From assembly GCA_964582055.1 (NCBI GenBank), contig CAZOPT010000001.1, positions 63,038 to 127,037 on the forward strand: a stretch of DNA of 64,000 bases, given 5' to 3'. Every line of letters begins with the position of its first letter. The stretch's first letter is position 1. The stretch comes from an uncultured Opitutales bacterium (lineage in GTDB: Bacteria; Verrucomicrobiota; Verrucomicrobiia; Opitutales; UBA9783). Below the pieces are notes generated by a model. That model saw only the letters and a program-made list of their open reading frames with translations, made no database searches and was not told the DNA's origin. This document shows, piece by piece, positions 2,713-42,577 of the stretch. Both the position numbers and the translations under genes were made by a program.

Positions 2713-2718
2713 TTTCTT

Positions 2719-3153: not shown

Positions 3154-3155
3154 TT

Positions 3156-4061: not shown

Positions 4062-4076
4062 CCTTTATTTTCGGGA

Positions 4077-4981: not shown

Positions 4982-4982
4982 T

Positions 4983-5381
4983 ATGAAAATTACATTAAAT
5001 GAGCATATTTTGTGTAGCGGAAGTTCGGCTAATGAAACACCTTCTCGGTTCGAAGTTAGTAGTCAAAGGAACCTGCAAATTATAAAAGCAATTCGAGCAA
5101 GATTTAGCCAAACCTGTAATCGTGGTAATCTACAAACAAAATTGGTCTTTGAAGTGGGGCGAAAGCATCGATCTCAACAAGAGGCCGCTCAACATGCTTT
5201 ATTACATGCGAGCGAATTGCAACAGGCGAATGGTGTGTTGCAGATTGATTTTGAGGATAAAGCCAATCGACGTTTTCAGCTTGAATCAGCGACTTTGTAT
5301 CGTGTTCAAACACATTATAAAGGGAATGCTTCTTATACGTTTTACGAAATTTATGGAGGAGAATTACATGCAAACCATTGA
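4983..5381 (+). CDS. Hypothetical phage structural protein (132 aa)
   Basis: Starts 1 nt after the previous stop and is co-directional within the cluster. No recognisable motif. Confidence 0.5.
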   Translation: MKITLNEHILCSGSSANETPSRFEVSSQRNLQIIKAIRARFSQTCNRGNLQTKLVFEVGRKHRSQQEAAQHALLHASELQQANGVLQIDFEDKANRRFQLESATLYRVQTHYKGNASYTFYEIYGGELHANH

Positions 5382-5490
5382 AGATAATAATGCCCTTTGG
5401 GACGCTTTATATGAGCAGATTGACAAGATTCATTCTCTGGAATGGGACCTGAAAGAATTGAAAGAACAATTAGAAAATTTAAGGCATTAA
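5368..5490 (+). CDS. 40-aa coiled-coil micro-protein (MQTIEDNNALWDALYEQIDKIHSLEWDLKELKEQLENLRH)
   Basis: An ATG at 5368 is preceded by a strong GGAGGAG Shine-Dalgarno at 5355-5361. Its stop lies 1 nt before the next gene start. It is the tail of track ORF 5122..5490, whose upstream part overlaps the 132-aa gene. Confidence 0.5.
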   Translation: MQTIEDNNALWDALYEQIDKIHSLEWDLKELKEQLENLRH

Positions 5491-5491
5491 T

Positions 5492-7186: not shown

Positions 7187-7204
7187 AACTTAATCTTTTT
7201 ATTT

Positions 7205-7873
7205 ATGCCTACAATAAAACCTTTTAGAACCTTTGTTTCACCTTATGGTGTTACAACAAGACGCTTTGTTTATCCTCATCTTGAGAATAAAAAATGCGAT
7301 ATCATTACACATTTGGATGTTCCAACGATTGTGCGTTGTTATTGGCTCCTCGCAAAGCTTACGATTAACTACCATTATCAAATTAATGATTTCCCCATCC
7401 AAAATACAATAACTTTAGATGCAACTCGGTTTACGCTTTTAGAACGAATTGCTTTTAAAGATTATGGTTTGTATACGGAATTTTCAGACGATGAATTGGA
7501 AATTACGACCGAATGCCATTTTTATCCTGCGCAAGTATTTACTACGAAAAGTTCTTTGGATTGGACGAAAAGTATTGCTTTAAATACTTCATTAACCGAA
7601 AAATCACCGCTTTTATGGTGTCCGATAGAGCGTAATCTTACTGAAATATTAAGCTTATATTTGAATTTTAAGGAAGCTGCCAATAATGATGATTTTGTCC
7701 TAACTACAAGTGATTGGCTGGATGAACGCCACAATAATCCTTTGTTAGATTCTTATACAGCCTCTTTCCTTAATTATTCAGTTACTTTTCGCTTACGAAC
7801 ACCTTATCCTAAGGAAATTGATGGCAAAATCCATAAGATCGAAATCCTTCCCGAATTTTTTACGGTAGAGTAG
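7205..7873 (+). CDS. Hypothetical 222-aa protein, last gene of the phage-like cluster
   Basis: Intact ORF, co-directional with the cluster. No recognisable motif. Confidence 0.5.
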   Translation: MPTIKPFRTFVSPYGVTTRRFVYPHLENKKCDIITHLDVPTIVRCYWLLAKLTINYHYQINDFPIQNTITLDATRFTLLERIAFKDYGLYTEFSDDELEITTECHFYPAQVFTTKSSLDWTKSIALNTSLTEKSPLLWCPIERNLTEILSLYLNFKEAANNDDFVLTTSDWLDERHNNPLLDSYTASFLNYSVTFRLRTPYPKEIDGKIHKIEILPEFFTVE

Positions 7874-12792: not shown

Positions 12793-14184
12793 TTAATCTA
12801 AATCCTTTGCATAATTTTCAAAACGTGTTAATGACTTTATATAGGTCAAATTAACAGCCCCAACAGGCCCATTACGCTGCTTGGCAATCAGTAATTCTCG
12901 TACGACAATATCTTCATTAACAGTCTCATCTACAGGACCATTTTCATCAAATTTTTTGGAAAGCAATAACACCAAGTCCGCATCTTGTTCTATCGAACCG
13001 GATTCGCGTAAATCCGACAAACGAGGTTGCCGACGTTCTTTTTCGGATTCACGGTTCAACTGACTTAAAACAATTACAGGGACATTTAATTCCTTAGCTA
13101 ATCCTTTGATGCCTCTGGAAATTTCCGCGATTTGTTGTTCACGAGGAACTTTGGGATCAGTGCCCGAAATCAATTGTAGGTAATCGATAATAACTAATCC
13201 CAAACCATGTTGTGCATGCACACGACGTGCTTTTGAACGCAATTCTAATATAGTTGTATTTGAGGATGCATCGATCCATAAAGGTGCTTTCTTAAATTCA
13301 GAAGCAACCATCGTAAGTTCGTGCGACTTGCCATCTGTAATGTATCCACAACGCAATTTCGTCATGTTGATGTGTGCGCGCCCACACAGCATACGTATAG
13401 CTAATTGTTCAGCGCTCATTTCAAGGCTGAAAAAGAGCGTTGGGACGGGATTTTTCCCTAAAATGGCCACTTCTGCAAAATTAAGTGCTAAAGCTGTTTT
13501 TCCCATCGATGGACGTGCTGCCAAAACAATCATTTCAGCTGGATGAAAACCAGATGTTAAATTGTCAAGTTCGATAAAACCACTTTTTATTCCGCTAACG
13601 CTTTCTGAATGTTGCAACAGATTCTGAATCGTGTTAACGGCTTTATCTAAAGAAACATCAAATGCCTGCGCAGAATCTTCGACACGGCCACTACTAATCT
13701 CTAAAACTTTTCCTTCGACACTTTCAATAAATTGATCGATGTCATCAACTCCTTGATAAGCATCTTCCAGGCCTGTCATAAAGAATCGAACCAAATTGCG
13801 TGCAATTTCTAAATCTTTTACTCTTTGAGCGTAAAAACTCAAATTGGCAGGTGTCTCAATGCGGTTTGTGATTTCGTTAAGATAAGCGTAATTCCCAATA
13901 CGTTCTAGCTTTCCGGATGTCTTTAAACGTTCCGAAACGGTCAATTCATTAACTGGAGCACCTTCTTGGTACAAAAGTAAGCAAATTTTAAAAATTTCTG
14001 CATGTGCAGGAATATAAAAAGAACAAGGCGATAGCTTTAAATCGATGCATTTTGCCAAACTATCTTGCCCTCCTTCCAACATACAAGCAGCCAACAAAGC
14101 CTGCTCGTAATCCACACTGTAAGGAGGCTCTCGAAGTGCTTTTTCTCGCTTAACTTCGTTAGCCATACTTAATAATTGTAACAA
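12793..14184 (-). CDS. dnaB: Replicative DNA helicase DnaB
   Basis: PPYSVDYEQALLAACML N-terminal motif, Walker A ARPSMGKTALALN, and IIDYLQLI and LSQLNR motifs. Confidence 0.95.
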   Translation of the reverse strand: MLQLLSMANEVKREKALREPPYSVDYEQALLAACMLEGGQDSLAKCIDLKLSPCSFYIPAHAEIFKICLLLYQEGAPVNELTVSERLKTSGKLERIGNYAYLNEITNRIETPANLSFYAQRVKDLEIARNLVRFFMTGLEDAYQGVDDIDQFIESVEGKVLEISSGRVEDSAQAFDVSLDKAVNTIQNLLQHSESVSGIKSGFIELDNLTSGFHPAEMIVLAARPSMGKTALALNFAEVAILGKNPVPTLFFSLEMSAEQLAIRMLCGRAHINMTKLRCGYITDGKSHELTMVASEFKKAPLWIDASSNTTILELRSKARRVHAQHGLGLVIIDYLQLISGTDPKVPREQQIAEISRGIKGLAKELNVPVIVLSQLNRESEKERRQPRLSDLRESGSIEQDADLVLLLSKKFDENGPVDETVNEDIVVRELLIAKQRNGPVGAVNLTYIKSLTRFENYAKDLD

Positions 14185-14649
14185 TTAAGCAATTGGATTT
14201 TCGGAAACAACCTCAACGGATAAGTTTAAATGTATATCCTTGTGCAAGCGAACTTGGAATGAATGTCTTCCTAAAGTTTTTATTGGCTGTTGTAAGCGAA
14301 TACAGCTTTTGTCGAACTCAATACCTTCTTCAGTATAGCGTTTCCACAAATCGTTGTGTGAAACAGAACCGAATAATTTGCCTTCTTCTCCAGTCTTTAC
14401 TGCAATTGTCAAAGAAATAGCTTCTAAACGTTTTGCTAGAGTTTGTGCTTCTTCTAACTCTTTTGCCTCACGAGCTGCACGAGCTTTCTGTAAGGCTTCT
14501 ATTTGCTTTGCATTGGCGCGAACAAAAGGCATAACCCAATGCTTGGGCAATAGAAAATTGCGAGCATATCCTGCCTTTACGGAAACGATATCACCTTCGC
14601 CTCCAAGATTCTTTACTGGCTTTAACAACAAAACTTTTATATGTGCCAT
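14185..14649 (-). CDS. rplI: 50S ribosomal protein L9
   Basis: MAHIKVLLLKPVKNLGGEGDIVSVKAGYARNFLLP is canonical L9. Confidence 0.9.
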   Translation of the reverse strand: MAHIKVLLLKPVKNLGGEGDIVSVKAGYARNFLLPKHWVMPFVRANAKQIEALQKARAAREAKELEEAQTLAKRLEAISLTIAVKTGEEGKLFGSVSHNDLWKRYTEEGIEFDKSCIRLQQPIKTLGRHSFQVRLHKDIHLNLSVEVVSENPIA

Positions 14650-19430: not shown

Positions 19431-20423
19431 ATGAGAGACAGTTCTATTTTAATTAAAGGTGTTGGCTATTATCTTCCAGAAAAGCGATTGACGAATGATG
19501 ATTTATCAAAAATCGTAGATACTTCAGATGAATGGATTCGGACTCGAACTGGCATTTCTGAACGTCATATTGCGTCTAACGAAGAAGCAACTTCGGATTT
19601 GGCTTATCAAGCAGCAAAAAATGCGTTAAGAAATGCGCAATGCGATCCTGAATCAATCGATGCCTTGATTATCGCAACTGTAACATCGGACATGTTATTC
19701 CCTTCGACAGCTGCTTTGGTACAGTCGAAATTAGGTTTACGCAATGTTTTAAGTTTTGATATAAATGCGGCTTGTTCTGGTTTTTTATATGCCTTAGAAA
19801 TTGGACGTAATTTGCTTAATTGTCAGTATTATAAGCGTGTTTTGGTGGTTGGCGCTGAAAAAATATCCTCTATTGTTAATTGGGAGGATCGTGGTACTTG
19901 TGTTTTGTTTGGGGATGGAGCTGGAGCATTTGTTTTAGAACGTTCTGAAGAGCCAAACGTTGGCATTTTAGATCAAACTTTGGGTGCTGATGGAGAGCAC
20001 GCAAACGTACTTTGTCTACCTGCAGGTGGTTCCCGTTTGCCGGCTTCTATCGATACTGTACAAGCTCATTTACACACGATTTCGATGAATGGAAAAGAAT
20101 TGTTTAAGATGGCCGTTCGTTTAATGGCTAAGTCGGTTGAAGATTTACTTGCGCGGAACAATTTGACCCATGCCGATATTGCTTGGTTGGTCCCTCATCA
20201 AGCTAATTTGCGTATTATTCAGTCCTTAGCTCAAACCTTGGAAGTTCCTATGGAACGTATTTTTTGCAATTTAGATAAAACAGGAAATACTTCTGCAGCA
20301 TCTATTCCGATTGCTTTTGCCCAAGCAAATGAACAAAATTGCTTTAAAACGGGTGATTACATTGTTTTAGTTGCATTTGGAGGAGGCTTGACATGGGGGG
20401 CAAGTTTAATAAAATACGCATGA
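19431..20423 (+). CDS. fabH: 3-oxoacyl-ACP synthase III
   Basis: VDTSDEWIRTRTGISERHIA, active-site AACSGF, and HQAN and GNTSAASIP motifs. The ATG at 19431 (MRDSSILIKG) fits the FabH N-terminus better than the track start at 19416. Confidence 0.9.
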   Translation: MRDSSILIKGVGYYLPEKRLTNDDLSKIVDTSDEWIRTRTGISERHIASNEEATSDLAYQAAKNALRNAQCDPESIDALIIATVTSDMLFPSTAALVQSKLGLRNVLSFDINAACSGFLYALEIGRNLLNCQYYKRVLVVGAEKISSIVNWEDRGTCVLFGDGAGAFVLERSEEPNVGILDQTLGADGEHANVLCLPAGGSRLPASIDTVQAHLHTISMNGKELFKMAVRLMAKSVEDLLARNNLTHADIAWLVPHQANLRIIQSLAQTLEVPMERIFCNLDKTGNTSAASIPIAFAQANEQNCFKTGDYIVLVAFGGGLTWGASLIKYA

Positions 20424-21460
20424 TGAAAGGTTTAAAAAACTTATTTTTTGTGTTTTTGCTCGCTTTAGGAGGTTGTTTTCATACCATACGTAATGATATT
20501 CCATCGTCTCAAATTGCGCAGAAATCTCCTGAGCGTGATGCTCAAGCATGGTATTATTTTCAGGAAGCACAATTTCATTTAAAGCGAGGTAAGCCTGAAA
20601 AGGCTTTTAAACGATTTAAAATTATTGGTACACAATACCTCGAAACTGCAATTGCTCCTGAAGCTTTCTTTTGTTGGGGTCAGGAATTACGTAGGTTAGG
20701 AAAGATCGAACAAGCTTTTGAGAAGTTTAAGTTTGTAACAAAAAATTATGTTAATTATCGTAATTATGGGCAAGTTGTTGAAGAAGAATTTGATTTAGCT
20801 TGCCAAATTATGAAACGTTACAATCGACAAAGCCGTTTGCGTTTTTTGTCGTTTTTTAAAGATGCTACAGAAGCTGTTGAGTGTTTTCAACATATTGTAA
20901 CGATGGCTCCGCATTCTGAAAAAGCTGCAAGGGCATTATTTTTGATTGCACAATTGGAACGTGATAGTGGAGATAAGGTCAAAGCGATTACTGCGTTAGA
21001 TCAGCTTATTGAAAATTATCCTGCACACCCTTGTGTTCCGGACGCTTATTTGTTACAGGGAGAAATTTATTTTTCTTTTGTAAATGGTCCGCATAATGAC
21101 CAAGGAATGACGCGTAATGCCATTCATTGTTACGAAGATTTTTTGCAGATTTATTCACAAGATGAAAGTTTGCACGATAAAATTGCTTTAGCTCGTCAGA
21201 AACTTCAAGAAATGCGGGCATTTTATGGAGAAAGTCGTCTGGTTTTAGGAGATTATTTTTTGTATCGTCGGCATTATCCTCAAGGTGCGATTGTGTTTTA
21301 TAATGAAGCTCAATTGTTAGCGCCCTTTACAAAGGTTTCTGAAAAAGCACAGCAACGTATTGATTTCATTCATTCCGGCAAGGAAACGCCTACCAATTGG
21401 GCGGATTTATGTTTCGGAAAGGTTGTGCATCATGCTCCGTCTTCTCAAGTAAAGCATTAA
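20420..21460 (+). CDS. TPR lipoprotein, BamD/YfiO-like
   Basis: An ATG at 20420 overlaps the fabH stop (ATGA). The signal peptide carries a lipobox (LLALGGC). TPR-like repeats are present, and the C-terminal segment ESRLVLGDYFLYRRHYPQGAIVFYNEA resembles BamD. Confidence 0.55.
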   Translation: MMKGLKNLFFVFLLALGGCFHTIRNDIPSSQIAQKSPERDAQAWYYFQEAQFHLKRGKPEKAFKRFKIIGTQYLETAIAPEAFFCWGQELRRLGKIEQAFEKFKFVTKNYVNYRNYGQVVEEEFDLACQIMKRYNRQSRLRFLSFFKDATEAVECFQHIVTMAPHSEKAARALFLIAQLERDSGDKVKAITALDQLIENYPAHPCVPDAYLLQGEIYFSFVNGPHNDQGMTRNAIHCYEDFLQIYSQDESLHDKIALARQKLQEMRAFYGESRLVLGDYFLYRRHYPQGAIVFYNEAQLLAPFTKVSEKAQQRIDFIHSGKETPTNWADLCFGKVVHHAPSSQVKH

Positions 21461-21461
21461 T

Positions 21462-22091
21462 ATGTTACAAATTATTTCCAGCATTGAGTGGTTTATTTAT
21501 CCGTTTGGGATTTTGTTGGTTGTTGGTACTATTTTTTTTTTAGAAAGAGCTTTATTTCTGCATAAAGGCCAAATTCGACCAGAAAATTTTCTTACCGGAC
21601 TTCAAGCGCTATTAAAAAAGGGACGTCGCATGGAAGCCATTACATTGTGTGAGGAAACGCCTGGTTCTGTAGCTCGTCTTATGAAAATTGCTCTTATTTA
21701 TGCTTCCGAATCACAAAACTTTATTCTCGATGAATTGCGTCGTAATGCACTTTTGGAGTTACCTTTGTTACGGAAACGTATTGAATCGTTGCGTTTTATG
21801 GCTCAATTAGCGCCAGTTGTAGGCCTAATTGGTTCTGTTTTTTATTTATTAAAAGGATTTTGGAACTTGGGAGCTTTGCAAGCTTATACTTCTTTAACAA
21901 GTTTTGCACCTTATATTACTTCGGCTTTATCGGTAACGTTAGTAGGCTTTATTGAGATGTTTTTATTTTACTTAGCTTATCATTTCTTAAAAGGGCGTTT
22001 GCGGGCTCTTATTTTTGATATGGAATGGTCGGTGAATGAAATAGTAATTTTTTTAAGTCGAATGCCAAAAAAATCCAATGAAAGCGACTAA
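21462..22091 (+). CDS. MotA/TolQ/ExbB family proton-channel protein
   Basis: Three predicted TM helices. The motif LAPVVGLIGSVFYLLKGF corresponds to the TolQ/ExbB A-P-L-L-G-L-x-G-T-V signature. Confidence 0.75.
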   Translation: MLQIISSIEWFIYPFGILLVVGTIFFLERALFLHKGQIRPENFLTGLQALLKKGRRMEAITLCEETPGSVARLMKIALIYASESQNFILDELRRNALLELPLLRKRIESLRFMAQLAPVVGLIGSVFYLLKGFWNLGALQAYTSLTSFAPYITSALSVTLVGFIEMFLFYLAYHFLKGRLRALIFDMEWSVNEIVIFLSRMPKKSNESD

Positions 22092-22518
22092 TTCATTTGA
22101 GCGTTTAAATTTACTTTCGCAAGAAATCTTGGCTGAAAAAAATATTTTTCCGCTACAGTGGATACCCTATTGTAATTTGTTGGTATTAGCTTTTGGTTTA
22201 CTGCTTTTGAGCTCTAAGTGGTTGTGCCCTCCAGGTGTTCAATTGCAATTGCCAACAGCTACAACTTCTGTTGCTTTACAGACCGCTTATCCTTTAAATC
22301 ACGCAATTATTGTTGATGGGCGCGGATTTATTTTTTTTGAACGCAAGGTTTATGATTTTGAACATTTGGAAGATTTATTTTCTGATCCTATAGATACAGA
22401 AGAAGTTCTTTGGCTGATTATTGATAAGCGTATTGTTTGGGAAAAAGTGCTAAAATTATTTGAGCATGCTCATTTTCGTGGTTATAAATCTGTTCAATTA
22501 GCTGTTGCAATGCAATGA
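22078..22518 (+). CDS. ExbD/TolR family protein (Asn at the conserved TM Asp position)
   Basis: Single N-terminal TM (IPYCNLLVLAFGLLLL), then the LQLPTA motif and a small periplasmic domain. It overlaps the exbB-like gene by 14 nt. Confidence 0.6.
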   Translation: MKATNSFERLNLLSQEILAEKNIFPLQWIPYCNLLVLAFGLLLLSSKWLCPPGVQLQLPTATTSVALQTAYPLNHAIIVDGRGFIFFERKVYDFEHLEDLFSDPIDTEEVLWLIIDKRIVWEKVLKLFEHAHFRGYKSVQLAVAMQ

Positions 22519-23108
22519 AAATTTTTAGAGTGTTGCTTTTCCTGATTCTTATTTTTTGCATAACTAAGAGCTTTTGGAAAAATCCTTTCGAATATGAGTT
22601 GCCTCTTTTATTGTTTCCTGAGAAAAAAGCTTGGTTAAGCTACAATATCAATCAGCAAAATACTAGATACCTTTGGGATGATAGGCCTTTATGTTTACAA
22701 ACTTCTTTTAATTTCTCAGAATTAAAACCACTTTTGTTGCCGCATATATCGGAATTACTAACGAGTTTTAGAAGTGAAGTTGTCAAAGAAACGTGTAATT
22801 TAGGTGTTAAAGACTGGCAATTAAAGATCGAAGATCCTCAAACAAAAAAAAAGTTTAGTTGGCCCTGTCGTCGTGTAAAACCAATTACGCCGCAATTGCG
22901 TTTTTCGGTTGAAAGAAATTTGCAAGACTCTTATTCTTTTAAAGTTTTATGTATAGGGAATTCGCCTGGGAAAAACACTTTTTATAGCATTTCTGATTCA
23001 AAAGGTTGGACAAGTTTTATCTATAAAGAAAAGGCGTGGTCCGTAGTTAAAACCTTTATTCAACAAGTTGATGTTCCGTTTGGTATTTCCAAAATTCGGC
23101 AAGATTGA
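22515..23108 (+). CDS. Hypothetical membrane-anchored protein in the TonB/TolA position
   Basis: ATGA overlap with the exbD-like gene. It has an N-terminal TM anchor but no Pro-rich spacer and no TonB C-terminal motif. Confidence 0.4.
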   Translation: MKIFRVLLFLILIFCITKSFWKNPFEYELPLLLFPEKKAWLSYNINQQNTRYLWDDRPLCLQTSFNFSELKPLLLPHISELLTSFRSEVVKETCNLGVKDWQLKIEDPQTKKKFSWPCRRVKPITPQLRFSVERNLQDSYSFKVLCIGNSPGKNTFYSISDSKGWTSFIYKEKAWSVVKTFIQQVDVPFGISKIRQD

Positions 23109-26896: not shown

Positions 26897-28750
26897 TTAG
26901 GCTTTCCAGCGTTTAATACCCTCAATTGAAAGTACTTGACCGGATGGTAAAACAACAGAATCTCCTACCTTTTTACCCAACATTTCGCTTGCTAATGGTG
27001 TTTTATAGGAAAGAATATTCTTCTTTGGATCGCCATCCCATGCGCCCAAGATGGTATAAACAGAAATTTTACCTTTGGCATCTTTCAAGGAAACTTCTGT
27101 ACCAATATTAACGCTATTGGTTGAAACTTCTTCAAAATTAATGATTTGAGCACGATTTAATTCTTTCTCGAGCATGGACTTGCGAGCCATTAAAACGGTT
27201 TGGTCTTGGCGTGCCATTTTGTACTCTGAATTTTCACTTAAGTCACCTAATTCACGTGCTGCAGCAATAGCGGCCTTATTTGCAGGAATTTTTTCATTGA
27301 TGAGTGTTAAATACTCCTGTTTCATCAATTCTAAGCTTTCTTTAGAAACAAGTAACCGTTCTTCTTGTACATTTTCTTTGTTTTCGGTTAAACGCTGCAA
27401 TTCTGGGAATACACGAATGAAGCGTGCCATCAAAGATCGTTTCTTTAAAGTATCAAAACCTTGATTTAGGAGTAAATTACGTGCTAAATCCTGGGCAAGA
27501 TCGATATCCGCATTTTTCAATAAATCCGCAATTAATTGTTGATCATCATTAACAGTTTCTACCAATGGAATACGACGTCCTGGCGCTACATTAAGGGCAT
27601 CGCTATCAATTGCTTGAAAAATACAACTGAGCAAGCGAACACCTATAATATCAGATAGTAAATTCTCATAGCGTGGCAATGCGCGATGTTTGATAATCCA
27701 AATGAGCACAGAACTTTTCAAGGATTGCTCTTGTAGCCACTTGTTGAACGCCTTTTTCAGTAAAGCTTCGCAATCACGATCTAACAAGAAGTTGATGCAT
27801 TCAGAAGTTAAACGCGCATTTCCATATTTAAGCAAGTTTAAGATAATGTGCTGCCACTCTGTATCATCCATATAAGTGCGTGTTAACAAGTCCAAGAATC
27901 GTGAATAATAAATATGTGGTAATTGTGCAACTAATTCTGATAAATTTTCTGTTTCACGAATAATTGATTGTGAAGTTGGTTCTAATTCTTCTACGGATTC
28001 GTGTAAATAACGCGCTAGGTTATTACGTACCCAGCAACCTTCTAAACGTTGCGCTTGCGTTAACAGTTTAGCATGTTGGATTGCATGTGTTAATTCATCT
28101 AAAACTTGCGGTAAGTCGTTTCGAATAACATCAATGCTGTCTGCTAATTGGTAAAGTTTTGCACCTAATGTGATCTTTTCTAAAGGACGTTTGGTTAAGT
28201 AAAATTCTTCTAAAATTTCTTGTTCAGGCAAAATGGGTTCTTCACGTAACACATAGGCATTTGTTTTGGGTTTTGGAGTACCAATACGTGGATCTTTTAC
28301 CAATAACTTCTGCAAACCAGTCCACCAACGCTTAAATTGAGCGGTATTCAAATGATTAGATAAAACCTGTATCAGAACATTTTCCAATTCTAAAGGTTTT
28401 GCGGATTGTCCTGGCATTTTCTTTAAAACTTCCACAACAAGCTCACATGGTTGATCTTTTTGCATTTGCTTGATTTTTTCAGGGTTTTTGCGTGCTTCAA
28501 CCAAAATATGATCTTCAGGAATAATGGTAAGTTTTTGTATGCAAAAAACAGGATCCATAGACCGTGTCTCTTTTTGCGACTCAAAATTAATCAAAATGCG
28601 ACGATTAGCTTCGTCATAACCTTTGATGCAACCGACCCCCCAACTTTGATGCCAACAGTAAGTTCCTGCTTCTAATGCTTCAAAAGCTTTGCGCTTACCT
28701 TTTAATTGTGGATTCTGTTTTAGAATTAAATCAATTGCTTCCTTATTCAT
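26897..28750 (-). CDS. greA: Transcript cleavage factor GreA with ~460-aa N-terminal extension
   Basis: The C-terminal ~155 aa carry the GreA coiled-coil tip (ELGDLSENSEYKMARQDQ) and globular domain (ISYKTPLASEMLGKKVGDSV). The N-terminal part is unrecognised. Confidence 0.8.
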   Translation of the reverse strand: MNKEAIDLILKQNPQLKGKRKAFEALEAGTYCWHQSWGVGCIKGYDEANRRILINFESQKETRSMDPVFCIQKLTIIPEDHILVEARKNPEKIKQMQKDQPCELVVEVLKKMPGQSAKPLELENVLIQVLSNHLNTAQFKRWWTGLQKLLVKDPRIGTPKPKTNAYVLREEPILPEQEILEEFYLTKRPLEKITLGAKLYQLADSIDVIRNDLPQVLDELTHAIQHAKLLTQAQRLEGCWVRNNLARYLHESVEELEPTSQSIIRETENLSELVAQLPHIYYSRFLDLLTRTYMDDTEWQHIILNLLKYGNARLTSECINFLLDRDCEALLKKAFNKWLQEQSLKSSVLIWIIKHRALPRYENLLSDIIGVRLLSCIFQAIDSDALNVAPGRRIPLVETVNDDQQLIADLLKNADIDLAQDLARNLLLNQGFDTLKKRSLMARFIRVFPELQRLTENKENVQEERLLVSKESLELMKQEYLTLINEKIPANKAAIAAARELGDLSENSEYKMARQDQTVLMARKSMLEKELNRAQIINFEEVSTNSVNIGTEVSLKDAKGKISVYTILGAWDGDPKKNILSYKTPLASEMLGKKVGDSVVLPSGQVLSIEGIKRWKA

Positions 28751-34816: not shown

Positions 34817-35620
34817 TCAAAAATTCCATCCCTCAAAAATATAAAATATTACAGCAATTGAGAGAAATGGACCAAAAGGAACACATTTATCGCGAATGGC
34901 TAACGGTTTTTTTTGTGTAATCCACTGCACAAGGCCCCAAGCAAATACAACAATAGTTCCAATAACGGCACCCCCTAAAATGCTGAATAAGCATCCTTTC
35001 CAACCACAAAAAGCACCGATGCATCCAACTAATTTGATATCTCCAAATCCCATGGCTTCTTTTTTTAGGAAAAATTCCACAAAACTAATAAAACAAACCA
35101 ATCCTCCCATACCCCAACAAATACCTTGAATACTTGCCAACATTCCTTGAAATGCATCACATTCGGCATGCAGTTTAGGGAAAAAATAACTCATCAAAAT
35201 GCCAATAACGATGCCTAATAATGTAATTTCGTCAGGTATAAGCATCGTATCTAAATCGGTCCAAAAAGCAACCCACAGCAAGCATAACAAGATAAAATAA
35301 GGCCAAAATAAATCTTTATGAAACCAATAAATTACAATGGCCAACAGTCCAACAAAAATTTCAGAAAAAAAATAACGAATGGAAATTCTTTTGCCACAAC
35401 AAGCACTTTTCCCTCTTAGAAATAACCAAGCTAGGATAGGGATGTTCAAATACCATGGAATTTTTTTTTTGCAATGAGGGCAGTAAGAAGCTGGATATAT
35501 AACTGATTGTTCTTTGGGTAACCGCTCAATACAAACTGAAAGAAAACTTCCTATGCAACTTCCAAAAACAAGTAAAACTAATAAAATGCATCCTATAGGC
35601 CACACATCCATGTTTATCAT
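34817..35620 (-). CDS. pilD: Prepilin peptidase (A24 family, PilD/GspO-like)
   Basis: Cys pairs CPHC...CCGKRI in the cytoplasmic loop, catalytic Asp context GFGDIKL, and a polytopic membrane profile. Confidence 0.9.
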   Translation of the reverse strand: MINMDVWPIGCILLVLLVFGSCIGSFLSVCIERLPKEQSVIYPASYCPHCKKKIPWYLNIPILAWLFLRGKSACCGKRISIRYFFSEIFVGLLAIVIYWFHKDLFWPYFILLCLLWVAFWTDLDTMLIPDEITLLGIVIGILMSYFFPKLHAECDAFQGMLASIQGICWGMGGLVCFISFVEFFLKKEAMGFGDIKLVGCIGAFCGWKGCLFSILGGAVIGTIVVFAWGLVQWITQKKPLAIRDKCVPFGPFLSIAVIFYIFEGWNF

Positions 35621-35684
35621 TTTCTCACAAAAAACCTTATTCTACAAGTAGTTTTTCTAAAAATTAGAAAACTAAAACTTTTTA

Positions 35685-36938
35685 TTACGGATTGTGTAAT
35701 TGCTGATGGAATGAACCTTCACGCCAAACAAGATAATCTCTTAAAATTTCTGCATGATCGAAGGCAAGTTCACTCCATGGAATTTTGTCGAGAGGACAGA
35801 CCCAAAGTTTTGCTGCATCTGAACCGGCCTGTGGAATAACATTATCACAACGGGAAATATGAACAGCATCAATGCAACGTCTGCGAGGATCCCGATTAAT
35901 AGAATCATAAACTCGGAATTGTTTAATGTCAGTTAGATCCAAGTTGCATTCTTCTTTCATTTCGCGTTTAGCAGTATATTGGACGGTTTCTCCATATTGA
36001 ACAGGTCCACCTGGAAGTGCTTTACCGTAAGGTTCTAAACCACGTTCGATCATTACAATACCTTTAAAGACATTTTTTTCGTAAACTTCAATGATAACTG
36101 TCGTTGCTAAAAATGGAGGCCTATAAGCATTTTTAGAAATCTCTTTAAGATCTTTTTCTTCGCGTTCTTTTTTATCAGTAATAGCCGGAAAACTTAAGTC
36201 GTTTTTCAATTCTTTATTGTCCTTGCTTAATTCAAATTCTAAAAAATCTTTTAAAATTTGAGCATGGTCAAAAGCCAAACGATCCCATGGAATTTCATTA
36301 ATAGGACAAATAAAAGCATGCTTAGCATCGGTTCCTGCAGAAAGAATGGATTCTGTACATTGAGCTATAAAGACGATGTCGATCATATGGGTTCTTGGAT
36401 CTCGATCTGAATTTGAATAAACATGGAATTGCTTCATATTTTGAATGTTTAAACCGCATTCATCACGAGCTGTTCTGACAACACAATCTTCACATGTTTC
36501 TTCATAGCGAATAATGCCACCTGGAATTGCTTTTCCCAAAGGAGGACGTCCACGTTCAATTAAAACAATTCCCACGAACTTACCTTGATTGTAAACTTTG
36601 ATAATCACGGAACTTGCTAAAGATGGTGTTTTCTTGAAAACACGTTCATCAAAAGAACCCTTATTGTTGTCGGAAATTTTATGTTCTTCTGTTTGTAAAA
36701 TTTTGTCTTTTGCTTTTGAATTTTTTGATCTCGAAGGAATGGCATCTTTTGTTTCGACACTTGCAGTTATGATTTTCTGATTTTCGCTTGTTGCAACTGC
36801 TTGAGACGACTTTTCAGAAATTGTTTTTGCTTTTACGTCATTCGTAAAACCATAATTAACCGATAACGAAAATACAAGTAGCGTACCAATAACCTTCCAC
36901 ATATTTTTATTTGTAGATTTATAAAAATAAAATGGCAA
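35685..36938 (-). CDS. Signal-peptide-bearing protein with two tandem Nudix (ADP-ribose pyrophosphatase/NadM-NrtR type) domains
   Basis: N-terminal hydrophobic signal (MWKVIGTLLVFSLSVNYG; M13 at 36902 may be the start) and a Lys/Ser-rich linker. Both domains carry a Nudix box, SDRDPR/INRDPR, AGTDA/AGSDA and LAFDHA motifs. Confidence 0.8.
   Translation of the reverse strand: MPFYFYKSTNKNMWKVIGTLLVFSLSVNYGFTNDVKAKTISEKSSQAVATSENQKIITASVETKDAIPSRSKNSKAKDKILQTEEHKISDNNKGSFDERVFKKTPSLASSVIIKVYNQGKFVGIVLIERGRPPLGKAIPGGIIRYEETCEDCVVRTARDECGLNIQNMKQFHVYSNSDRDPRTHMIDIVFIAQCTESILSAGTDAKHAFICPINEIPWDRLAFDHAQILKDFLEFELSKDNKELKNDLSFPAITDKKEREEKDLKEISKNAYRPPFLATTVIIEVYEKNVFKGIVMIERGLEPYGKALPGGPVQYGETVQYTAKREMKEECNLDLTDIKQFRVYDSINRDPRRRCIDAVHISRCDNVIPQAGSDAAKLWVCPLDKIPWSELAFDHAEILRDYLVWREGSFHQQLHNP
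35724..36617 (-). repeat. Intragenic tandem duplication (two ~130-aa Nudix domains, ~170-aa period)
   Basis: Residues 108-235 and 277-405 align along their whole length (VIIKVYNQGKFVGIVLIERG / VIIEVYEKNVFKGIVMIERG ... LAFDHAQILKDFL / LAFDHAEILRDYL). Confidence 0.8.
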
Positions 36939-36945
36939 TCATTTT

Positions 36946-38073
36946 TTAGAAAAATTTTTCTATTTTATTTTTTGTTTTATCTGTAGAAATCCACTGAAAG
37001 TTTGGCGAATTGTTTTTACAATTAGCATCCCAGGATTGATGTATTTGCAGCTGAATGTTATCCTTAAAAAGATTGAAGTCGATTCCTAATTCATGGCAAC
37101 GCATTACAACACGGTCGATATGTTGGGCATGTAATGTCGCAATAACCAGGTATCCCGATAAACAAGCGTAAAAAGCTGCTTTTGCAGTTTCGTTATCTCT
37201 AATTTCTCCGATGAGAATAACATTAGGATCTTGTCGTAATATAGCTTTTAAACCGTTTTCAAATGTATATCCAGCTTTTGTATCTACTTCTGTCTGCGTC
37301 CAATCATCGATCTCAGCTTCAATAGGGTCTTCCAGAGAAATCACTTTTAACCCTTTTTGACAAAGTAATTTCCCCAAAGCATATAGGGTTGTTGTTTTGC
37401 CGCTTCCTGTGGTCCCAGAGATAAGAATCATACCATTTAGTTCCAGTTTATGATCAATAAAATGGAGCAAATTATTCGGTAATCCTAATGTTTTTATCGA
37501 AAAAGGAAACAAATCTTCACTTAATAAGCGCAAAACCAAACTTTGTGTAACTGTACTTGCAAGATAAGATAAGCGACAAAATAAAATTTTATTTTCATAT
37601 TCATAACGAAAATGTCCTTCTTGAGGACGACGCGTTATATCAAAATTTAAGTGAGCTAAAACCAAAAAACTTTTCAATAAATGCTCACCAACGTTAAATG
37701 TAAAAGTTTCATTTCCAACCCAAGTTCGTTTGCTTTTAAATTTTAAGACAGCTTTTTCGGGGTAAATCGTTAAATAAATATCTGAAGCCTGTAATTGATA
37801 AGCTTTCCCTAAGACAGAATGTAGAAGTGTGTTTTTGTAAAAAACGCAAGTTTCTGTATTTAAAAGCGTATTTGTAGGACCTACATAAACATGTAATTGA
37901 CAGCCTAGGATTTGTTCAAGCCTTTCAATGTAATTTTGAGGTAAAGACTTATCAATACCTAAAATACTAACTTTAGGTGCTATTTCACTATAATACCATC
38001 CTTGTTTATGAATAAAACGAAGAACACTTTCTTGCGATTTACCTTTAAGCCTTATGAGGGCATGCTGCTGCAT
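36946..38073 (-). CDS. Short GspE/PilB/ComGA-family secretion ATPase (no C-terminal tetracysteine module)
   Basis: Asp box RRPQEGHF, Walker A GTTGSGKTTT, GEIRDNETAKAAFYACLSGYLVIATLHA. The ATG at 38073 (MQQHAL) has an AAGGA Shine-Dalgarno and is preferred. The track start at 38136 would overlap the zinc-ribbon gene by 92 nt. Confidence 0.8.
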   Translation of the reverse strand: MQQHALIRLKGKSQESVLRFIHKQGWYYSEIAPKVSILGIDKSLPQNYIERLEQILGCQLHVYVGPTNTLLNTETCVFYKNTLLHSVLGKAYQLQASDIYLTIYPEKAVLKFKSKRTWVGNETFTFNVGEHLLKSFLVLAHLNFDITRRPQEGHFRYEYENKILFCRLSYLASTVTQSLVLRLLSEDLFPFSIKTLGLPNNLLHFIDHKLELNGMILISGTTGSGKTTTLYALGKLLCQKGLKVISLEDPIEAEIDDWTQTEVDTKAGYTFENGLKAILRQDPNVILIGEIRDNETAKAAFYACLSGYLVIATLHAQHIDRVVMRCHELGIDFNLFKDNIQLQIHQSWDANCKNNSPNFQWISTDKTKNKIEKFF

Positions 38074-38290
38074 TTTCCTTCTTAGGACATTGATCGCACT
38101 TTGAAGAATGTTTATAGTCCGTTTCATAAAACCCATGTCCTTTGAAAATAAGTCCTGCCCCTTCTCCTATTTTTCGATGTAATGTTGGTTTTTGGCAATA
38201 AGGACAAATTGTTTTTGCAGGTTCTTTTATGGAATGAAATATTTCCAATGTTTTTCCGCATGAACTACAACTGTAATCATAGGTTGGCAT
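38045..38290 (-). CDS. FmdB-family zinc-ribbon protein
   Basis: MPTYDYSCSSCG...CPYC...FKGHGFYETDY is the CxxC_CxxC_SSSS signature. It has an extra C-terminal CDQC...CPH cluster. Confidence 0.8.
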   Translation of the reverse strand: MPTYDYSCSSCGKTLEIFHSIKEPAKTICPYCQKPTLHRKIGEGAGLIFKGHGFYETDYKHSSKCDQCPKKENAAACPHKA

Positions 38291-38423
38291 AATTTTATTA
38301 TTTTACAATCATTTGCGACTATCTTGGCAAGCTCTTTTTAAAAATTTCTTATTTTTCGCTTGTAGAAAAGAGTTTTTATTGGTAAGCCTATTAACAGTAG
38401 GGCATAAAAATGTCAGGTGTCAC

Positions 38424-40118
38424 GTGAATAATTTAAGTAATAATAAAGCTAACAAGGCGTATTGGACGCTACTTATTATTTTTTTCTTGTTTTTAAAATT
38501 GTTAAGAGCAGATGAACGTAAAGAGGTTCATGAAACGCTCTTGCAAGGTATTCAAGAATCTTGGCCGGTACCTAAACCTACAGAAGTAGCTATTACTGGT
38601 GAACTTAGTGATGTTGACAAAAATCCTTGCGGAAATCAGTCTCTAAGTGAACAATTAGCCCGTATCATTATTCCGAAAGTCAACTTAAGTCAATTGCCAT
38701 TGTCAAAAGCATTGACGTTTTTAACAGAGTTTTCTAGCGTTTACGATTTAGAAGGTAAGGGGGTTAGTTTTGTGCTTATCGATCCTGATCATAAAGATCC
38801 TTATATTGACCTCAATGTGCAATCTTTATCCTTGGAAAAAATCTTGCGTTATATTTGTGAAATGACGCACTTTTCCTTTCAAATTGAAGGAAATATTGTT
38901 GTTTTTCGAGATGGTACCAAACGAACGTTAGATTTGCGTACACAAGTTTTTCCAGTATCTCGCGGAAGTGTTTTGCAGATTTTGAATTATGCGCAGCCTT
39001 CTGCAGAAGAAAAATCTCTTTCAGACGAAGCTTTACTCAAGGAGTTTTTTGGAAAAATTGGCATTTCGTGGACTGAAGAAGGTGTTGGATTTGCTTATGA
39101 TGGATGTCGAATTGTTGCAACACATTATCCTGATGTTTTATGTCGTATTCAAGCGCTACTTCAACAGTATAAACCTTTGCCTCAGGTTGCCATTGAAACT
39201 AAATTTTTAGATATTCAACAAGGTATTTTGGAAGAACTTGGTTTACGTTGGAATTCAGGTAAGAACAACAATGTTACAGTCGATACAACGACAACTTTGC
39301 GTCCTTTATCACGACTTGATAGTATCAAGTGGACAAGTGAAGCAAGCCGTGAAAATACCACATCTGCTATTCCTAAATTTCCTAATGCACTTGATTTTGG
39401 TAATAATGTAGCGTCATTTTTAGATGTCAATACAATCCTTAATCGCTATCAAATGCAATTTATTTTGCGCGCGATTGAACAACGTTCAGATTCAGACCTC
39501 ATGAGCACTCCAAAAGTAACGGTTTTGTCGGGTAGAAAAGCAGAAATTGTTATTGCTCAAGAGTTACGTTATCCAGAAAGTTTTCGTGATGGCCGTGCTG
39601 AAGTGGGAAGTAAACATTCGGATGCATCATCGGCTGGAACGGCCATCATTGCAGGGGTTCCTGAAAACTTTGTTACACGTAATGTCGGTGTTGAAATGAG
39701 CGTTGTTCCTTTAGTTGAAAGCAATGAGCGTATTCATTTGTCGCTCGAACCTTGTGTTACCGAATTGGAAGGGTTTGTTCCTTATGGAGGTAGTAATATT
39801 ATAACGTATGGGGCAAATGTTACATCCTACGATTCTGGCTATTATCAGCCTGTTTTTTCAACTCGACGTATTAAAACCGAAGTTTCTCTAGCCAACGGTG
39901 CTACATTAGTTATGGGAGGCTTAACACGCGAAGAAGTTAAGGAAACGAAAGATAAAGTACCGATTTTTGGTAATATTCCTCTTATAGGAAAATTGTTTAC
40001 ATCAAAGGGTCAAACGGCTCAAAAACGTAATTTGTTGATTTTTGTGACTGCAAATTTGTTGAATGAAGATGGAAAAACTTTTGTCACACCAGAGCTACCG
40101 ACACAGCAAACGTTCTAG
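38424..40118 (+). CDS. Secretin (GspD/PilQ family outer membrane channel)
   Basis: C-terminal secretin domain (STPKVTVLSGRKAEI...VPIFGNIPLIGKLFTS...LLIFVTANLL) and an N-terminal STN/N0-like region. The in-frame GTG at 38424 gives a signal-peptide-like N-terminus (NKAYWTLLIIFFLFLKLL) and is preferred over the TTG at 38313. Confidence 0.85.
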   Translation: MNNLSNNKANKAYWTLLIIFFLFLKLLRADERKEVHETLLQGIQESWPVPKPTEVAITGELSDVDKNPCGNQSLSEQLARIIIPKVNLSQLPLSKALTFLTEFSSVYDLEGKGVSFVLIDPDHKDPYIDLNVQSLSLEKILRYICEMTHFSFQIEGNIVVFRDGTKRTLDLRTQVFPVSRGSVLQILNYAQPSAEEKSLSDEALLKEFFGKIGISWTEEGVGFAYDGCRIVATHYPDVLCRIQALLQQYKPLPQVAIETKFLDIQQGILEELGLRWNSGKNNNVTVDTTTTLRPLSRLDSIKWTSEASRENTTSAIPKFPNALDFGNNVASFLDVNTILNRYQMQFILRAIEQRSDSDLMSTPKVTVLSGRKAEIVIAQELRYPESFRDGRAEVGSKHSDASSAGTAIIAGVPENFVTRNVGVEMSVVPLVESNERIHLSLEPCVTELEGFVPYGGSNIITYGANVTSYDSGYYQPVFSTRRIKTEVSLANGATLVMGGLTREEVKETKDKVPIFGNIPLIGKLFTSKGQTAQKRNLLIFVTANLLNEDGKTFVTPELPTQQTF

Positions 40119-41460
40119 TCCTTTTCAAGGTAATCTTACGTTTACGGTTTTGTGTCTCATTGCGCTTAGTTGTGGAATTGCTGCGCTTTCTTTAAAAAAC
40201 AACCAGTACAAACGCTATTGTCAACGAATACATCGTAATTATTTTGATGAAAAACAGGCATTAGAACTCTGTTTTGCGGCCTTTAAAAAATTGAAAGAAG
40301 CCGCTACTAAAGATGCAGTTATTACTTATGAAAAAGAAGGAAAAATCCATTTTGTAGATGCTATTAGCAAAGAAGATTTAGTGAATTTAGACGAAATTCT
40401 TTTTGAAAATTCTGCAAAAATTTCTGTTTTCTCAGATCCTGAGGCGAAAAATTACATTCCTTGTTTACCCCAATCAGAAGGTGTTCGACAAACACTTGAA
40501 GAGCTTTTTCAACAAGAAATACGTCCAGAACCTCTAAAAAATAATTACCCGCTTATTCGAAATCGTTGGTTTTCTTTAAAAAATAATACTGCTTTAGATG
40601 CTAGCCTTTTTGAGCCTTATTTAAAAGCTTGGGATAAACTTGATAATCAATTAAAATTAACCTTCTTAAATCCTTTCGATCGATCATTAAAGAGAAAGTT
40701 CAATCTAACCGTAACATGTAATGTATCAGATGAAGTAATGTCGCCTAAATCTCCAGTTTTTGACTGCTCTTTAAAACCGGGTGAGTCTGTTTTTCATAAC
40801 GTAGAAATAAAAACAGAAAAAAATTTTTCAAATTTTACCATTTGTTATGGTACAATTTCGGTTGAAAAAACTTTAAGATCTGAGTCATCTAGAAAAACAA
40901 CTCCTAAATGGAGGAGGCTATCGCCTCCTGCACCTGAACCTATAAAACTCAAAGAGATTATCGATAAAATTTATTTTAAGACGCAAACGCCGCTACAATG
41001 TTTGAATACATGTTTGTTTTTTCATGAGACTTTAGAGCCAATAGTTGCATTTGGGAAAAAGGATGAAATCAATAAATATTTTTGGAATAATGTTCTTTTT
41101 GATAAATCTGCAGTTTATTTTAACTTAAATGCGAACGAGGTACAATTAAAACAAAAATTGGAGGGCTTGTTCGAAGAATCTGTTGTTAAAATGTTATGTG
41201 AAGATATTTTAAAAAGCCAACCTTTTTATGATATTTATTCGTTTACTTCTAAGCTTTCTCAAGATTTGGCGAGCCATTGGAATGCATTGGACAGTCTTCC
41301 TATTTTTGTGTTACGTGAGGAGAGTTTTATCATTGAAGCGCAACTTAAAAGTCTTCAAAAAAATGTCTTCATACGATGTCGTTTATGGGTTCATCGTGAG
41401 ATAAAATCGGATAAAGAGCGTGAGTGGAGTATAGACCAAATCGAATATAAACGATTTTAA
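40063..41460 (+). CDS. Hypothetical 465-aa protein with a single N-terminal hydrophobic segment (pilin-like leader lacking Glu5?)
   Basis: Overlaps the secretin 3' end by ~50 nt. Its N-terminus is HSKRSSPFQG-NLTFTVLCLIALSCGIAALSL. The remainder has no recognisable motif. Confidence 0.4.
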   Translation: MKMEKLLSHQSYRHSKRSSPFQGNLTFTVLCLIALSCGIAALSLKNNQYKRYCQRIHRNYFDEKQALELCFAAFKKLKEAATKDAVITYEKEGKIHFVDAISKEDLVNLDEILFENSAKISVFSDPEAKNYIPCLPQSEGVRQTLEELFQQEIRPEPLKNNYPLIRNRWFSLKNNTALDASLFEPYLKAWDKLDNQLKLTFLNPFDRSLKRKFNLTVTCNVSDEVMSPKSPVFDCSLKPGESVFHNVEIKTEKNFSNFTICYGTISVEKTLRSESSRKTTPKWRRLSPPAPEPIKLKEIIDKIYFKTQTPLQCLNTCLFFHETLEPIVAFGKKDEINKYFWNNVLFDKSAVYFNLNANEVQLKQKLEGLFEESVVKMLCEDILKSQPFYDIYSFTSKLSQDLASHWNALDSLPIFVLREESFIIEAQLKSLQKNVFIRCRLWVHREIKSDKEREWSIDQIEYKRF

Positions 41461-41461
41461 T

Positions 41462-42577
41462 TTAGGTCTTTGTATCAATTTTGGAATTATCAAAAACTTT
41501 ATCTTCAAAAACAATCATGCGTTCCATCGATCTTGCCCAAGATTGAAAAAGAATGCCATTTAAGAAATGTATTTGTTGTGTACGGTCATAACCTAAATTT
41601 TCTAAACGTTGAGTTACACTTGCTAAGGAATTTGCATGTAATGTTGCCAGTACACAATGTCCAGTCAATGCTGCATTAACAGCCATTTTGAGATGTTGTA
41701 CATCCCTTATTTCACCTATGCCAACAATACGCACGCTTTGCCGTAGTAAATTTCGAACAAAGTTGTCGGAAGGCAAATTTGTTTGCAAGGTAAGTTGAAC
41801 AAAATCGTTCGAAGGGACTTCGATAGGATCTTCCAAACTTACCACACGTAACTGCTTAAAATGTCTTAAAATACTGTAGTAGGTTGTTGTTTTTCCATTT
41901 CCAATAGGTCCTGTAATGAGCCACAAGCCATTTGGATTTTTGCACAAACTTTGAAAAAAATTCGTTTTGTCTAAGCCTAAATTTTCAGGGGTGTAATAAT
42001 TTGTATTTCTTAAAAGCCGAATAACAAGCGTTTCGCCATGTAAACAAGGCAAGGTTGAAACGCGACAATTGACGATTGTATCGGGTAGTTGCATATCAAA
42101 TTGGCCATCGTGTGGACGTCGCGAATCTGTTATGTCAATTTCTGCTTTCAACTTGATCAAATTAAAAAGTAGTTGTTGATTTTCCACACTTAGTTTTTGT
42201 AAAACCGACAATTGACCTTTTTTGCGTACACGAATGACACATTTTGATCGATGCGCTTCGAAGTGAATATCTGAACAGTTTTGTTGATAAGCAGAAAAAA
42301 TTAATTGTGCCAATTGGTGAGGAATGTCTACTTTTACTTCTTGTTGAATCAGCGGCACAGTCCCCTTAAAGCTTTGAATACTTTCTTTAAAATGGTTTTC
42401 ATCAACAATTTCAATGTCGATTAATTTACCATAAATTTGCGAAAGATAATGCACGTATCGTTGTGTTTCTGATGAAAAAGAAGGTCGTATTTTGCAAAAA
42501 AGTGTGTTTTTATCTTCATAAATTGGTAGGATTCCAAAGCGACGAAAACTTTTTTGTAAAATCGGCAGATCTTCCAT
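41462..42577 (-). CDS. Short GspE/PilB/ComGA-family secretion ATPase, second copy
   Basis: T2SSE_N-like N-terminus, Asp box RRPHDGQF, Walker A GPIGNGKTTT, GEIRDVQHLKMAVNAALTGHCVLATLHA. There is no Cys in the C-terminal region. Confidence 0.8.
   Translation of the reverse strand: MEDLPILQKSFRRFGILPIYEDKNTLFCKIRPSFSSETQRYVHYLSQIYGKLIDIEIVDENHFKESIQSFKGTVPLIQQEVKVDIPHQLAQLIFSAYQQNCSDIHFEAHRSKCVIRVRKKGQLSVLQKLSVENQQLLFNLIKLKAEIDITDSRRPHDGQFDMQLPDTIVNCRVSTLPCLHGETLVIRLLRNTNYYTPENLGLDKTNFFQSLCKNPNGLWLITGPIGNGKTTTYYSILRHFKQLRVVSLEDPIEVPSNDFVQLTLQTNLPSDNFVRNLLRQSVRIVGIGEIRDVQHLKMAVNAALTGHCVLATLHANSLASVTQRLENLGYDRTQQIHFLNGILFQSWARSMERMIVFEDKVFDNSKIDTKT

Follow-up and report, generated by a model that had tools for sequence, protein, structure and literature searches.

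The PilQ secretin Amuc_1098 of Akkermansia muciniphila is the most abundant outer-membrane protein of this bacterium and has been localised in the outer membrane by immunogold labelling (PMC4960237). A shorter relative of this protein is encoded in a 64-kb stretch of a contig (CAZOPT010000001.1; the stretch is hereafter the window) from an uncultured Opitutales bacterium. The gene lies in a seven-gene island (positions 34817–42577, counted from the window start) together with genes for a prepilin peptidase (PilD), a tandem-Nudix protein, a zinc ribbon, a 465-aa protein, and two short ATPases of the GspE/PilB class, designated A and B. The island is probably a lineage-specific juxtaposition of dispersed type IV filament genes, of the class that includes type II secretion systems (T2SS) and type IV pili (T4P), and not a self-sufficient machine; the best reading is that these dispersed parts share PilD. 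No publication on short ATPases or secretins in Opitutales was found.

Domains were called by Pfam and NCBIfam profile scans of the open reading frames (ORFs) of the window, and gene lengths were taken from a public contig of 103.6 kb (Logan SRR10277274_1576), which represents a near-identical strain and not the contig of the window itself. The called products, from PilD through ATPase B, are 267, 405, 375, 81, 564, 463, and 371 aa long. All seven genes proposed by an earlier reading of the DNA without database searches (the sequence-only reading) are present where it placed them. The zinc-ribbon, ATPase A, Nudix, and PilD genes are on the minus strand, the secretin gene and the 465-aa gene run divergently from them on the plus strand, and the gene for ATPase B is convergent.

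The sequence-only reading found neither a platform protein nor (pseudo)pilins in the island, and this absence holds and extends to the entire window. A six-frame pattern search finds no class III signal peptide in the 64 kb, and Pfam scans of essentially every ORF of at least 110 aa identify no T2SSF, N_methyl, or PilM/N/O gene; PilM_2 and Amuc_1100 domains are likewise absent from the window by Pfam. A tblastn search of the window with GspF from a related locus (L088) and a prepilin from a relative returns no match, and the intergenic gaps contain no pilin candidate and are too short to hide one. Judged as a T2SS, the locus lacks both a GspF platform and GspG–K proteins with class III leaders. 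Because platform and pilins are absent from the whole window, the remaining machine parts must lie elsewhere. The PilD gene (34817..35620, minus strand, 267 aa) implies prepilin substrates. Its product matches A24_N_bact (1.4e-30, 105.6 bits) and Peptidase_A24 (4.2e-17, 62.9 bits), both above the Pfam cutoffs, contains both catalytic aspartate motifs (TDLDTMLIPD and GFGDIKL), and is an intact bifunctional prepilin peptidase/N-methyltransferase of the PilD/GspO type.

Related verrucomicrobial loci, cited here by L numbers, contain such parts. In assembly GCA_052847175.1 (L001), where the block proteins are 74–76% identical to those of the window (ATPase B 74%, secretin 75%), the order is ATPase B, 465-aa gene, secretin, zinc ribbon, ATPase A, and Nudix gene. 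Within 2 kb after this block, beyond a 184-aa gene and YchF, are the GspG/H/I/J/K pseudopilin genes, with five genes carrying GFSLIE, GFTLIE, or GFTLVE leaders plus a GspK-like leader. L007 and L008 encode a GspG 79–90% identical to that of L001, and their operons continue with three N_methyl pseudopilins, a GspK-like gene, two unassigned genes, GspD, a 190-aa gene, full-length GspE (571–572 aa), and GspF (T2SSF). The T2SSF gene is also present in L088, where GspD-GspE-GspF is found 6 kb from a short secretin gene. The family assignments are consistent with a standard gsp operon: the relatives' GspG passes TIGR01710 (102.7 against a cutoff of 88.85), T2SSK_1st is present in 11 of 13 GspK homologues, GspD (726–742 aa) contains N0, Secretin_N, and Secretin domains, and GspE covers T2SSE positions 1–369/370 and has CxxC pairs. 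No verrucomicrobial locus examined has more than one T2SSF gene, and its place is always within the gsp operon. Since L001, L007, L008, and L088 all show this operon, the lineage has a complete T2SS of the ordinary kind, equipped with a secretin and a motor of its own, and the island genes are additional to it. The sequence-only reading had anticipated that a standard gsp operon elsewhere might account for the island genes as ordinary scattered components. The operon exists in relatives, but it comes with its own secretin and ATPase, and the short secretin and the two ATPases therefore remain an extra set.

Comparisons across relatives indicate that the island itself is not a stable unit. Its complete arrangement, including PilD and a major facilitator superfamily (MFS) gene, is found in L092, where the secretin is 85% identical; PilD is beside the island only in relatives at least 85% identical, and is not at the L001 locus. 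At 54–55% identity (L088, L093), only the secretin gene and its overlapping partner persist as a pair, followed in both loci by dnaE, and at 50% identity (L090) the 465-aa partner has gone as well. In L002, whose ATPase B is 49% identical, this gene is next to rpsT, an intact pair of zinc ribbon and ATPase A is ~9 kb away, and there is no secretin within the 21 kb examined around ATPase B. The zinc-ribbon/ATPase A pair is kept in L001 and L092 and also in L002/L003, which are more distant, and the adjacency of ATPase B and rpsT (S20) in L001, L002, and L004; in L005, from Puniceicoccales, ATPase B is a solitary gene. The composition of the island, whose conservation had been proposed as a check, thus dissolves at about 50–55% identity (L002, L088, L090, L093) while three pairs remain, and on this comparative evidence the seven-gene island is a recent juxtaposition. 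The stable units are secretin plus partner, zinc ribbon plus ATPase A, and rpsT plus ATPase B. ATPases flanking the secretin, as described in the sequence-only reading, are thus seen in the window and near relatives only, and in more distant genomes the ATPase genes are scattered.

The secretin gene is called at 38424..40118 on the plus strand (564 aa; a TTG-initiated ORF of 601 aa starts at 38313). Its product contains a Secretin domain (PF00263, 3.4e-34) and consists of a Sec leader, N0/N1-like domains, and the secretin barrel, with neither a tetratricopeptide repeat (TPR) region nor an AMIN domain. The top NCBIfam match is the Amuc_1098 family (NF042912), at 251.8 bits against a cutoff of 750; only model positions 562–803 are aligned, and the ~560 N-terminal positions, including the TPR/BamD-like region, are missing. 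The GspD model TIGR02517 gives 129.4 bits (cutoff 351), and there is no Pfam hit to Secretin_N. On the Amuc_1098 model, the relatives' operon-encoded GspD reaches only 35 bits, versus 252 for the island secretin. Homologues form a continuum that extends to TPR-secretins of 800–930 aa in Opitutae, with 36–40% identity over 86–91% of the query. An AlphaFold2 model (pLDDT 68) shows the leader helix, N0/N1-like domains, and barrel, and in Foldseek comparisons its first match is the Vibrio cholerae competence PilQ (5e-17), followed by BfpB and GspD, with N0N1 matches; the ranking among secretin classes is nearly flat, all of them being close behind PilQ. Taken together, these matches identify the island secretin as a relative of the verrucomicrobial PilQ (Amuc_1098) family that is truncated and has no TPR region. 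In Opitutaceae L091, a long family member ends an operon of PilM_2, Amuc_1100-family, 284-aa, and secretin genes. Upstream of the island secretin is the divergent zinc-ribbon/ATPase A pair, not PilM/Amuc_1100 genes. Immediately upstream of the L088 short secretin is a canonical prepilin gene (GGFTLIEMLVV, 192 aa; L088:9305-9883), which is not a Gsp pseudopilin. This copy belongs to a verrucomicrobial prepilin family with a GFTL[IV]E leader and a C-terminal NRYY, of which the window has no copy; L005 has two (316-603 and 13799-14419), located 6–7 kb on either side of its ATPase B.

The gene that follows the secretin gene (40063..41460, plus strand, 465 aa; called as 463 aa from 40069) overlaps its 3’ end by ~50 nt. 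Sequence and profile searches with the product yield no Pfam, NCBIfam, or PDB match, and the family is very narrow, with 23 cluster representatives among 1.84 billion proteins. A homologue overlaps the end of the secretin gene in L001, L092, and L088/L089, and overlapping genes occupy the same position in L087 (P0219) and L093. Across relatives, these partners are 465–526 aa long and are predicted to be membrane-anchored. The AlphaFold2 model of the 465-aa protein (pLDDT 50) contains a long N-terminal helix (residues 24–80), a beta-sandwich, and an alpha/beta C-terminal part, and Foldseek against the PDB returns only generic beta-sandwich matches, above E=0.006. The N-termini of the family follow the pattern basic-G/A-[NS]-[IL]-L-[LF] and resemble a GspK leader. 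GspK leaders have Gly at −1 and no Glu5; in several members of the family the glycine is replaced by alanine. Alignment of the family with GspK by hhalign covers only an N-terminal segment (32 columns, probability 34%), and there is no T2SSK Pfam hit. The protein may be anchored in the inner membrane and act as a connector in the periplasm, or it may be a minor subunit similar to GspK.

ATPase A (36946..38073, minus strand, 375 aa as called; the ORF reaches 38136) and ATPase B (41462..42577, minus strand, 371 aa) match T2SSE at 6.7e-60 (model positions 10–275 of 370) and 2.9e-60, respectively. Their scores of 203 and 204 bits, against a Pfam cutoff of 24.9, place both in the GspE/PilB superfamily. 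The Walker A, Asp box, Walker B, and His box motifs are intact in ATPase A (GTTGSGKTT, SLEDPIE, ILIGEIRD, and TLHA) and have counterparts in ATPase B (GPIGNGKTT, SLEDPIE, VGIGEIRD, and TLHAN). The N2D arginines are also kept, and both enzymes are predicted to be catalytically intact. As the sequence-only reading had noticed, they lack the C-terminal tetracysteine zinc module of GspE/PilB: neither contains a CxxC motif, the relatives' GspE has CPHC...CDMC, and alignments of both to V. cholerae EpsE end just ahead of the module. The two ATPases share ~31% identity with each other and 33–35% with the full-length GspE of the lineage. Among PDB structures, the best matches to ATPase A are GspE/EpsE at 1e-38, with PilT at 1e-20 to 1e-25, and those to ATPase B are EpsE at 1.3e-42 and PilF and PilB at 1e-40 to 1e-36, with PilT at 1e-19; the EpsE, PilF, and PilB neighbours of the two span 1e-42 to 1e-29. 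Both proteins are old paralogues of the GspE/PilB assembly class, with a reduced N1 region and a lost zinc module. Orthologues of ATPase B form a family of 355–382 aa across Opitutales/Puniceicoccales. A Puniceicoccales member (L005:5970-7118) keeps a C-terminal mini CPYC-x5-CIRC knuckle, and the window, L001, and L002 orthologues have no CxxC; because the Puniceicoccales protein still has this knuckle, a stepwise loss of the zinc module in the ATPase B lineage is suggested.

No NCBIfam equivalog cutoff is reached by either ATPase. ATPases A and B score 185.5 and 186.0 bits on GspE (TIGR02533, cutoff 630), 218.5 and 211.8 bits over the full ComGA model (NF041000, cutoff 300), and 136.4 and 114.7 bits on PilT/PilU (TIGR01420, cutoff 319). 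A PilT identity was considered for both and rejected, given the distance from the TIGR01420 cutoff and the much nearer GspE and PilB structures in the PDB. The ComGA model is not discriminating, as the relatives' canonical GspE scores 252 bits on it, above both short ATPases. A distance-based neighbour-joining (NJ) tree with 200 bootstrap replicates and long branches included a single ComGA reference, the Firmicute protein P0090 (L094:10001-13671), confirmed by its position at the head of a comGA-GB-GC...GF operon. Bootstrap support for monophyly is 100% for the A group and likewise for the B group; A, B, and this ComGA group together in 72% of replicates, and full-length GspE/PilB forms its own group, apart from short ATPases and PilT-like proteins, in 84.5%. 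The label “ComGA-like” given in the sequence-only reading fits the architecture; its phylogenetic support is weak.

A zinc-ribbon gene of the FmdB family (38045..38290, minus strand, 81 aa, CxxC-CxxC) overlaps the start of the ATPase A gene by ~29 nt. Its product matches PF09723 (1e-13) and exceeds the TIGR02605 cutoff (55.9 bits against 31.3). The zinc ribbon may give ATPase A, which has no zinc module, a zinc-binding element in trans. The Nudix gene (35685..36938, minus strand; the called 405-aa product corresponds to 35685–36902) matches PF00293 in two stretches (3.4e-23), and ADP-ribose-type Nudix families are nearest to its product, with scores far under the NCBIfam cutoffs. The tandem-Nudix protein has a signal-peptide-like, Sec-type N-terminus, MWKVIGTLLVFSLSVNYG; of its two Nudix boxes, one (RTARDE, the first) is degenerate and the other (REMKEE) intact. 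A secreted or periplasmic Nudix protein, if it is one, would be unusual, and it might serve in scavenging of NAD or ADP-ribose. The gene adjoins the block in L001 and L092, and in L002 it is 5 kb from ATPase B with no secretin nearby. The Nudix protein is probably not part of the machine. Its export by an island machine was considered and rejected, since it has its own Sec-like leader and the adjacency is gone in L002, L088, and L090.

The favoured reading, a juxtaposition of dispersed type IV filament genes around a shared peptidase, can be stated as a sequence of steps. PilD would process prepilins encoded outside the window, and one or both short ATPases would dock on a polytopic platform, either the GspF of the T2SS or a PilC-like paralogue elsewhere. 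The machine would then polymerise a pilus or pseudopilus, for which the short PilQ-like secretin would be the exit, and the 465-aa partner, anchored in the inner membrane, would connect the inner-membrane assembly to the N0/N1 domains of the secretin in a GspC/PilP-like role, or would act as a GspK-like minor pilin. The Nudix and MFS genes would be bystanders. Several observations weigh against this scheme. The gsp operon and the prepilins are seen in relatives and not in the window's own genome, of which 64 kb, part of a contig of at least 104 kb, was analysed. No second, PilC-type platform gene occurs in any verrucomicrobial locus examined, and beside the short secretin of this lineage the PilM/N/O/P-type genes that accompany long secretins are missing. 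The role suggested for the 465-aa protein draws on the overlap with the secretin gene, the N-terminal helix that is predicted, and a weak resemblance to a leader; its AlphaFold2 model reaches a pLDDT of 50 and matches no fold.

An alternative is that the short secretin and the two ATPases belong to the same T2SS as accessory parts and that no separate pilus exists. The secretin would then be an alternative outer-membrane channel, and the ATPases alternative or regulatory motors acting on the single GspF with GspG–K. Pseudomonas provides a model in XqhA, an alternative secretin for the Xcp system. The proximity of the block to gspG–K in L001 (2 kb) and of the short secretin to GspD-GspE-GspF in L088 (6 kb) is in line with this proposal, as is the single T2SSF gene per locus, always in the gsp operon. 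However, the secretin is much nearer to the T4P-type Amuc_1098 family (252 bits) than to GspD (129 bits), its long relatives are found in PilM/Amuc_1100 operons, and the L088 copy has its own PilA-like prepilin (192 aa) upstream instead of a Gsp pseudopilin. We regard an accessory role within the T2SS as unlikely, while giving it more weight than the other alternatives. Somewhat less likely still is a competence-type pseudopilus of a diderm, in which ComGA-like ATPases and a PilQ-type secretin would bring DNA into the periplasm. The absence of N1E and the zinc module from the ATPases, their alignment over the whole ComGA model, their grouping with one genuine ComGA in 72% of NJ replicates, and the competence PilQ of V. 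cholerae as the best structural match of the secretin all point in this direction. Yet canonical GspE outscores ATPases A and B on the ComGA model (252 versus 218 and 212, all <300), the tree is distance-based with one ComGA reference and long branches, the Foldseek ranking of the secretin is nearly flat, and profile scans of ORFs detect no ComGB, ComGC, ComEA, ComEC, or DprA gene in the window.

The sequence-only reading had offered two explanations for the missing parts, a split system or a reduced, secretin-based machine that takes up DNA or exports the neighbouring Nudix protein. An autonomous machine of the latter kind, lacking platform and canonical pilins and perhaps dedicated to the Nudix protein, would agree with the absence of both from the island and the window and with the retention of the block in L092 and L001. 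It is highly improbable: relatives have pilins and GspF nearby, PilD would be purposeless without prepilins, and at 50–55% identity the secretin, ATPases, and Nudix genes are dispersed, the Nudix protein having its own Sec-type leader. No GspE-family motor is known to work independently of a platform. The split system is borne out by the L001 pseudopilins within 2 kb of the block, by the rest of the operon in L007, L008, and L088, and by the prepilins that PilD implies. A bolder extension, which we consider doubtful, is that a second type IV filament machine, reduced to few parts, operates in gut Opitutales, possibly as a diderm Com pseudopilus for DNA uptake. With the same slight expectation, its parts would be the TPR-less PilQ, an inner-membrane partner specific to the lineage in place of PilM/N/O/P, and two zinc-less, ComGA-like ATPases, one of them coupled to a free-standing zinc ribbon. 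Equally tentative is the thought that it would borrow the T2SS GspF as a shared platform, or have none of its own.

The juxtaposition of dispersed genes is situated in what is, by its gene content, the core chromosome of a low-GC (~0.37) verrucomicrobium. Homologues assign it to the gut-type Opitutales MAGs. The GC fraction of the island (0.33–0.37) equals that of the rest of the window, and the surroundings encode housekeeping functions, including GlmS, GlgC, a long GreA, RecD2, rpsT, a SurA-like rotamase, the ATP synthase operon, AcrAB-TolC, and GyrAB. A horizontally acquired, foreign island was considered and rejected on account of this background GC and these neighbours. A promoter scan returns 31 sites versus 33 expected by chance, and the sole convincing terminator follows rpsT. 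The long GreA homologue (26897–28750, minus strand, 617 aa) carries a ~460-aa N-terminal extension before the GreA_GreB_N and C domains, in which HTH_GRAD is identified on the public contig. Right after plsX-fabH, positions 20393–23108 (plus strand) encode TPR/BamD-like (YfiO), ExbB/TolQ-like, and ExbD/TolR-like proteins and an unassigned 197-aa ORF. Window positions 1–7873 contain part of a Mu-like prophage, with Terminase_6C, Portal_Mu, and Mu-like protease I as well as several small ORFs that have no assignment; it adjoins the housekeeping genes for PRPP synthetase, LpxD, Skp, and BamA; the source contig runs ~37 kb further on the prophage side.

As it stands, the island is mainly an example of how genes become scattered in the ordinary way in an uncultured gut verrucomicrobium with a streamlined chromosome, and it adds three uncharacterised protein subfamilies. 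Should the short secretin, its partner, and the zinc-less ATPases form a second, functioning filament system, they would show how far diderm machines of the T4P/T2SS class can be reduced, and also whether one platform and one peptidase can serve two such machines. Akkermansia, in addition, gives the Amuc_1098 family medical interest.

Among the known systems, PilT/PilU proteins are similar in length to the island ATPases, and the presence of two extra hexameric-ATPase paralogues beside a main motor recalls PilB/PilT/PilU sets; however, in the PDB the E-values for PilT fall short of the GspE or PilB values by 15–20 orders of magnitude. Similar to ComGA of monoderms, ATPases A and B fall in the range of 330–375 aa, lack N1E and the tetracysteine module, cover the whole ComGA model, and group weakly by NJ with one genuine ComGA. 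Unlike ComGA, they score under the cutoff of 300 and under canonical GspE, no comGB–GG operon accompanies them, and the host here has two membranes and a secretin. The T2SS shares with the island a peptidase of the PilD/GspO type, and GspE/EpsE is among the best PDB and NCBIfam relatives of the ATPases. In contrast, the relatives' gsp operon has its own GspD and a full-length GspE with the zinc motif, compared with which the island ATPases are ~200 aa shorter, 33–35% identical, and at 186 bits against a cutoff of 630. The Amuc_1098 PilQ is the best-scoring curated family for the island secretin, and homologues connect the two through the continuum of Opitutae TPR-secretins. Unlike Amuc_1098, the island secretin has no TPR region and scores far below the cutoff of 750. 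Its surroundings also differ from the Amuc_1098 cluster: the upstream PilM, Amuc_1100, and Amuc_1099-type genes present in L091 are absent, and a lineage-specific 465-aa gene overlaps the 3’ end of the secretin gene.

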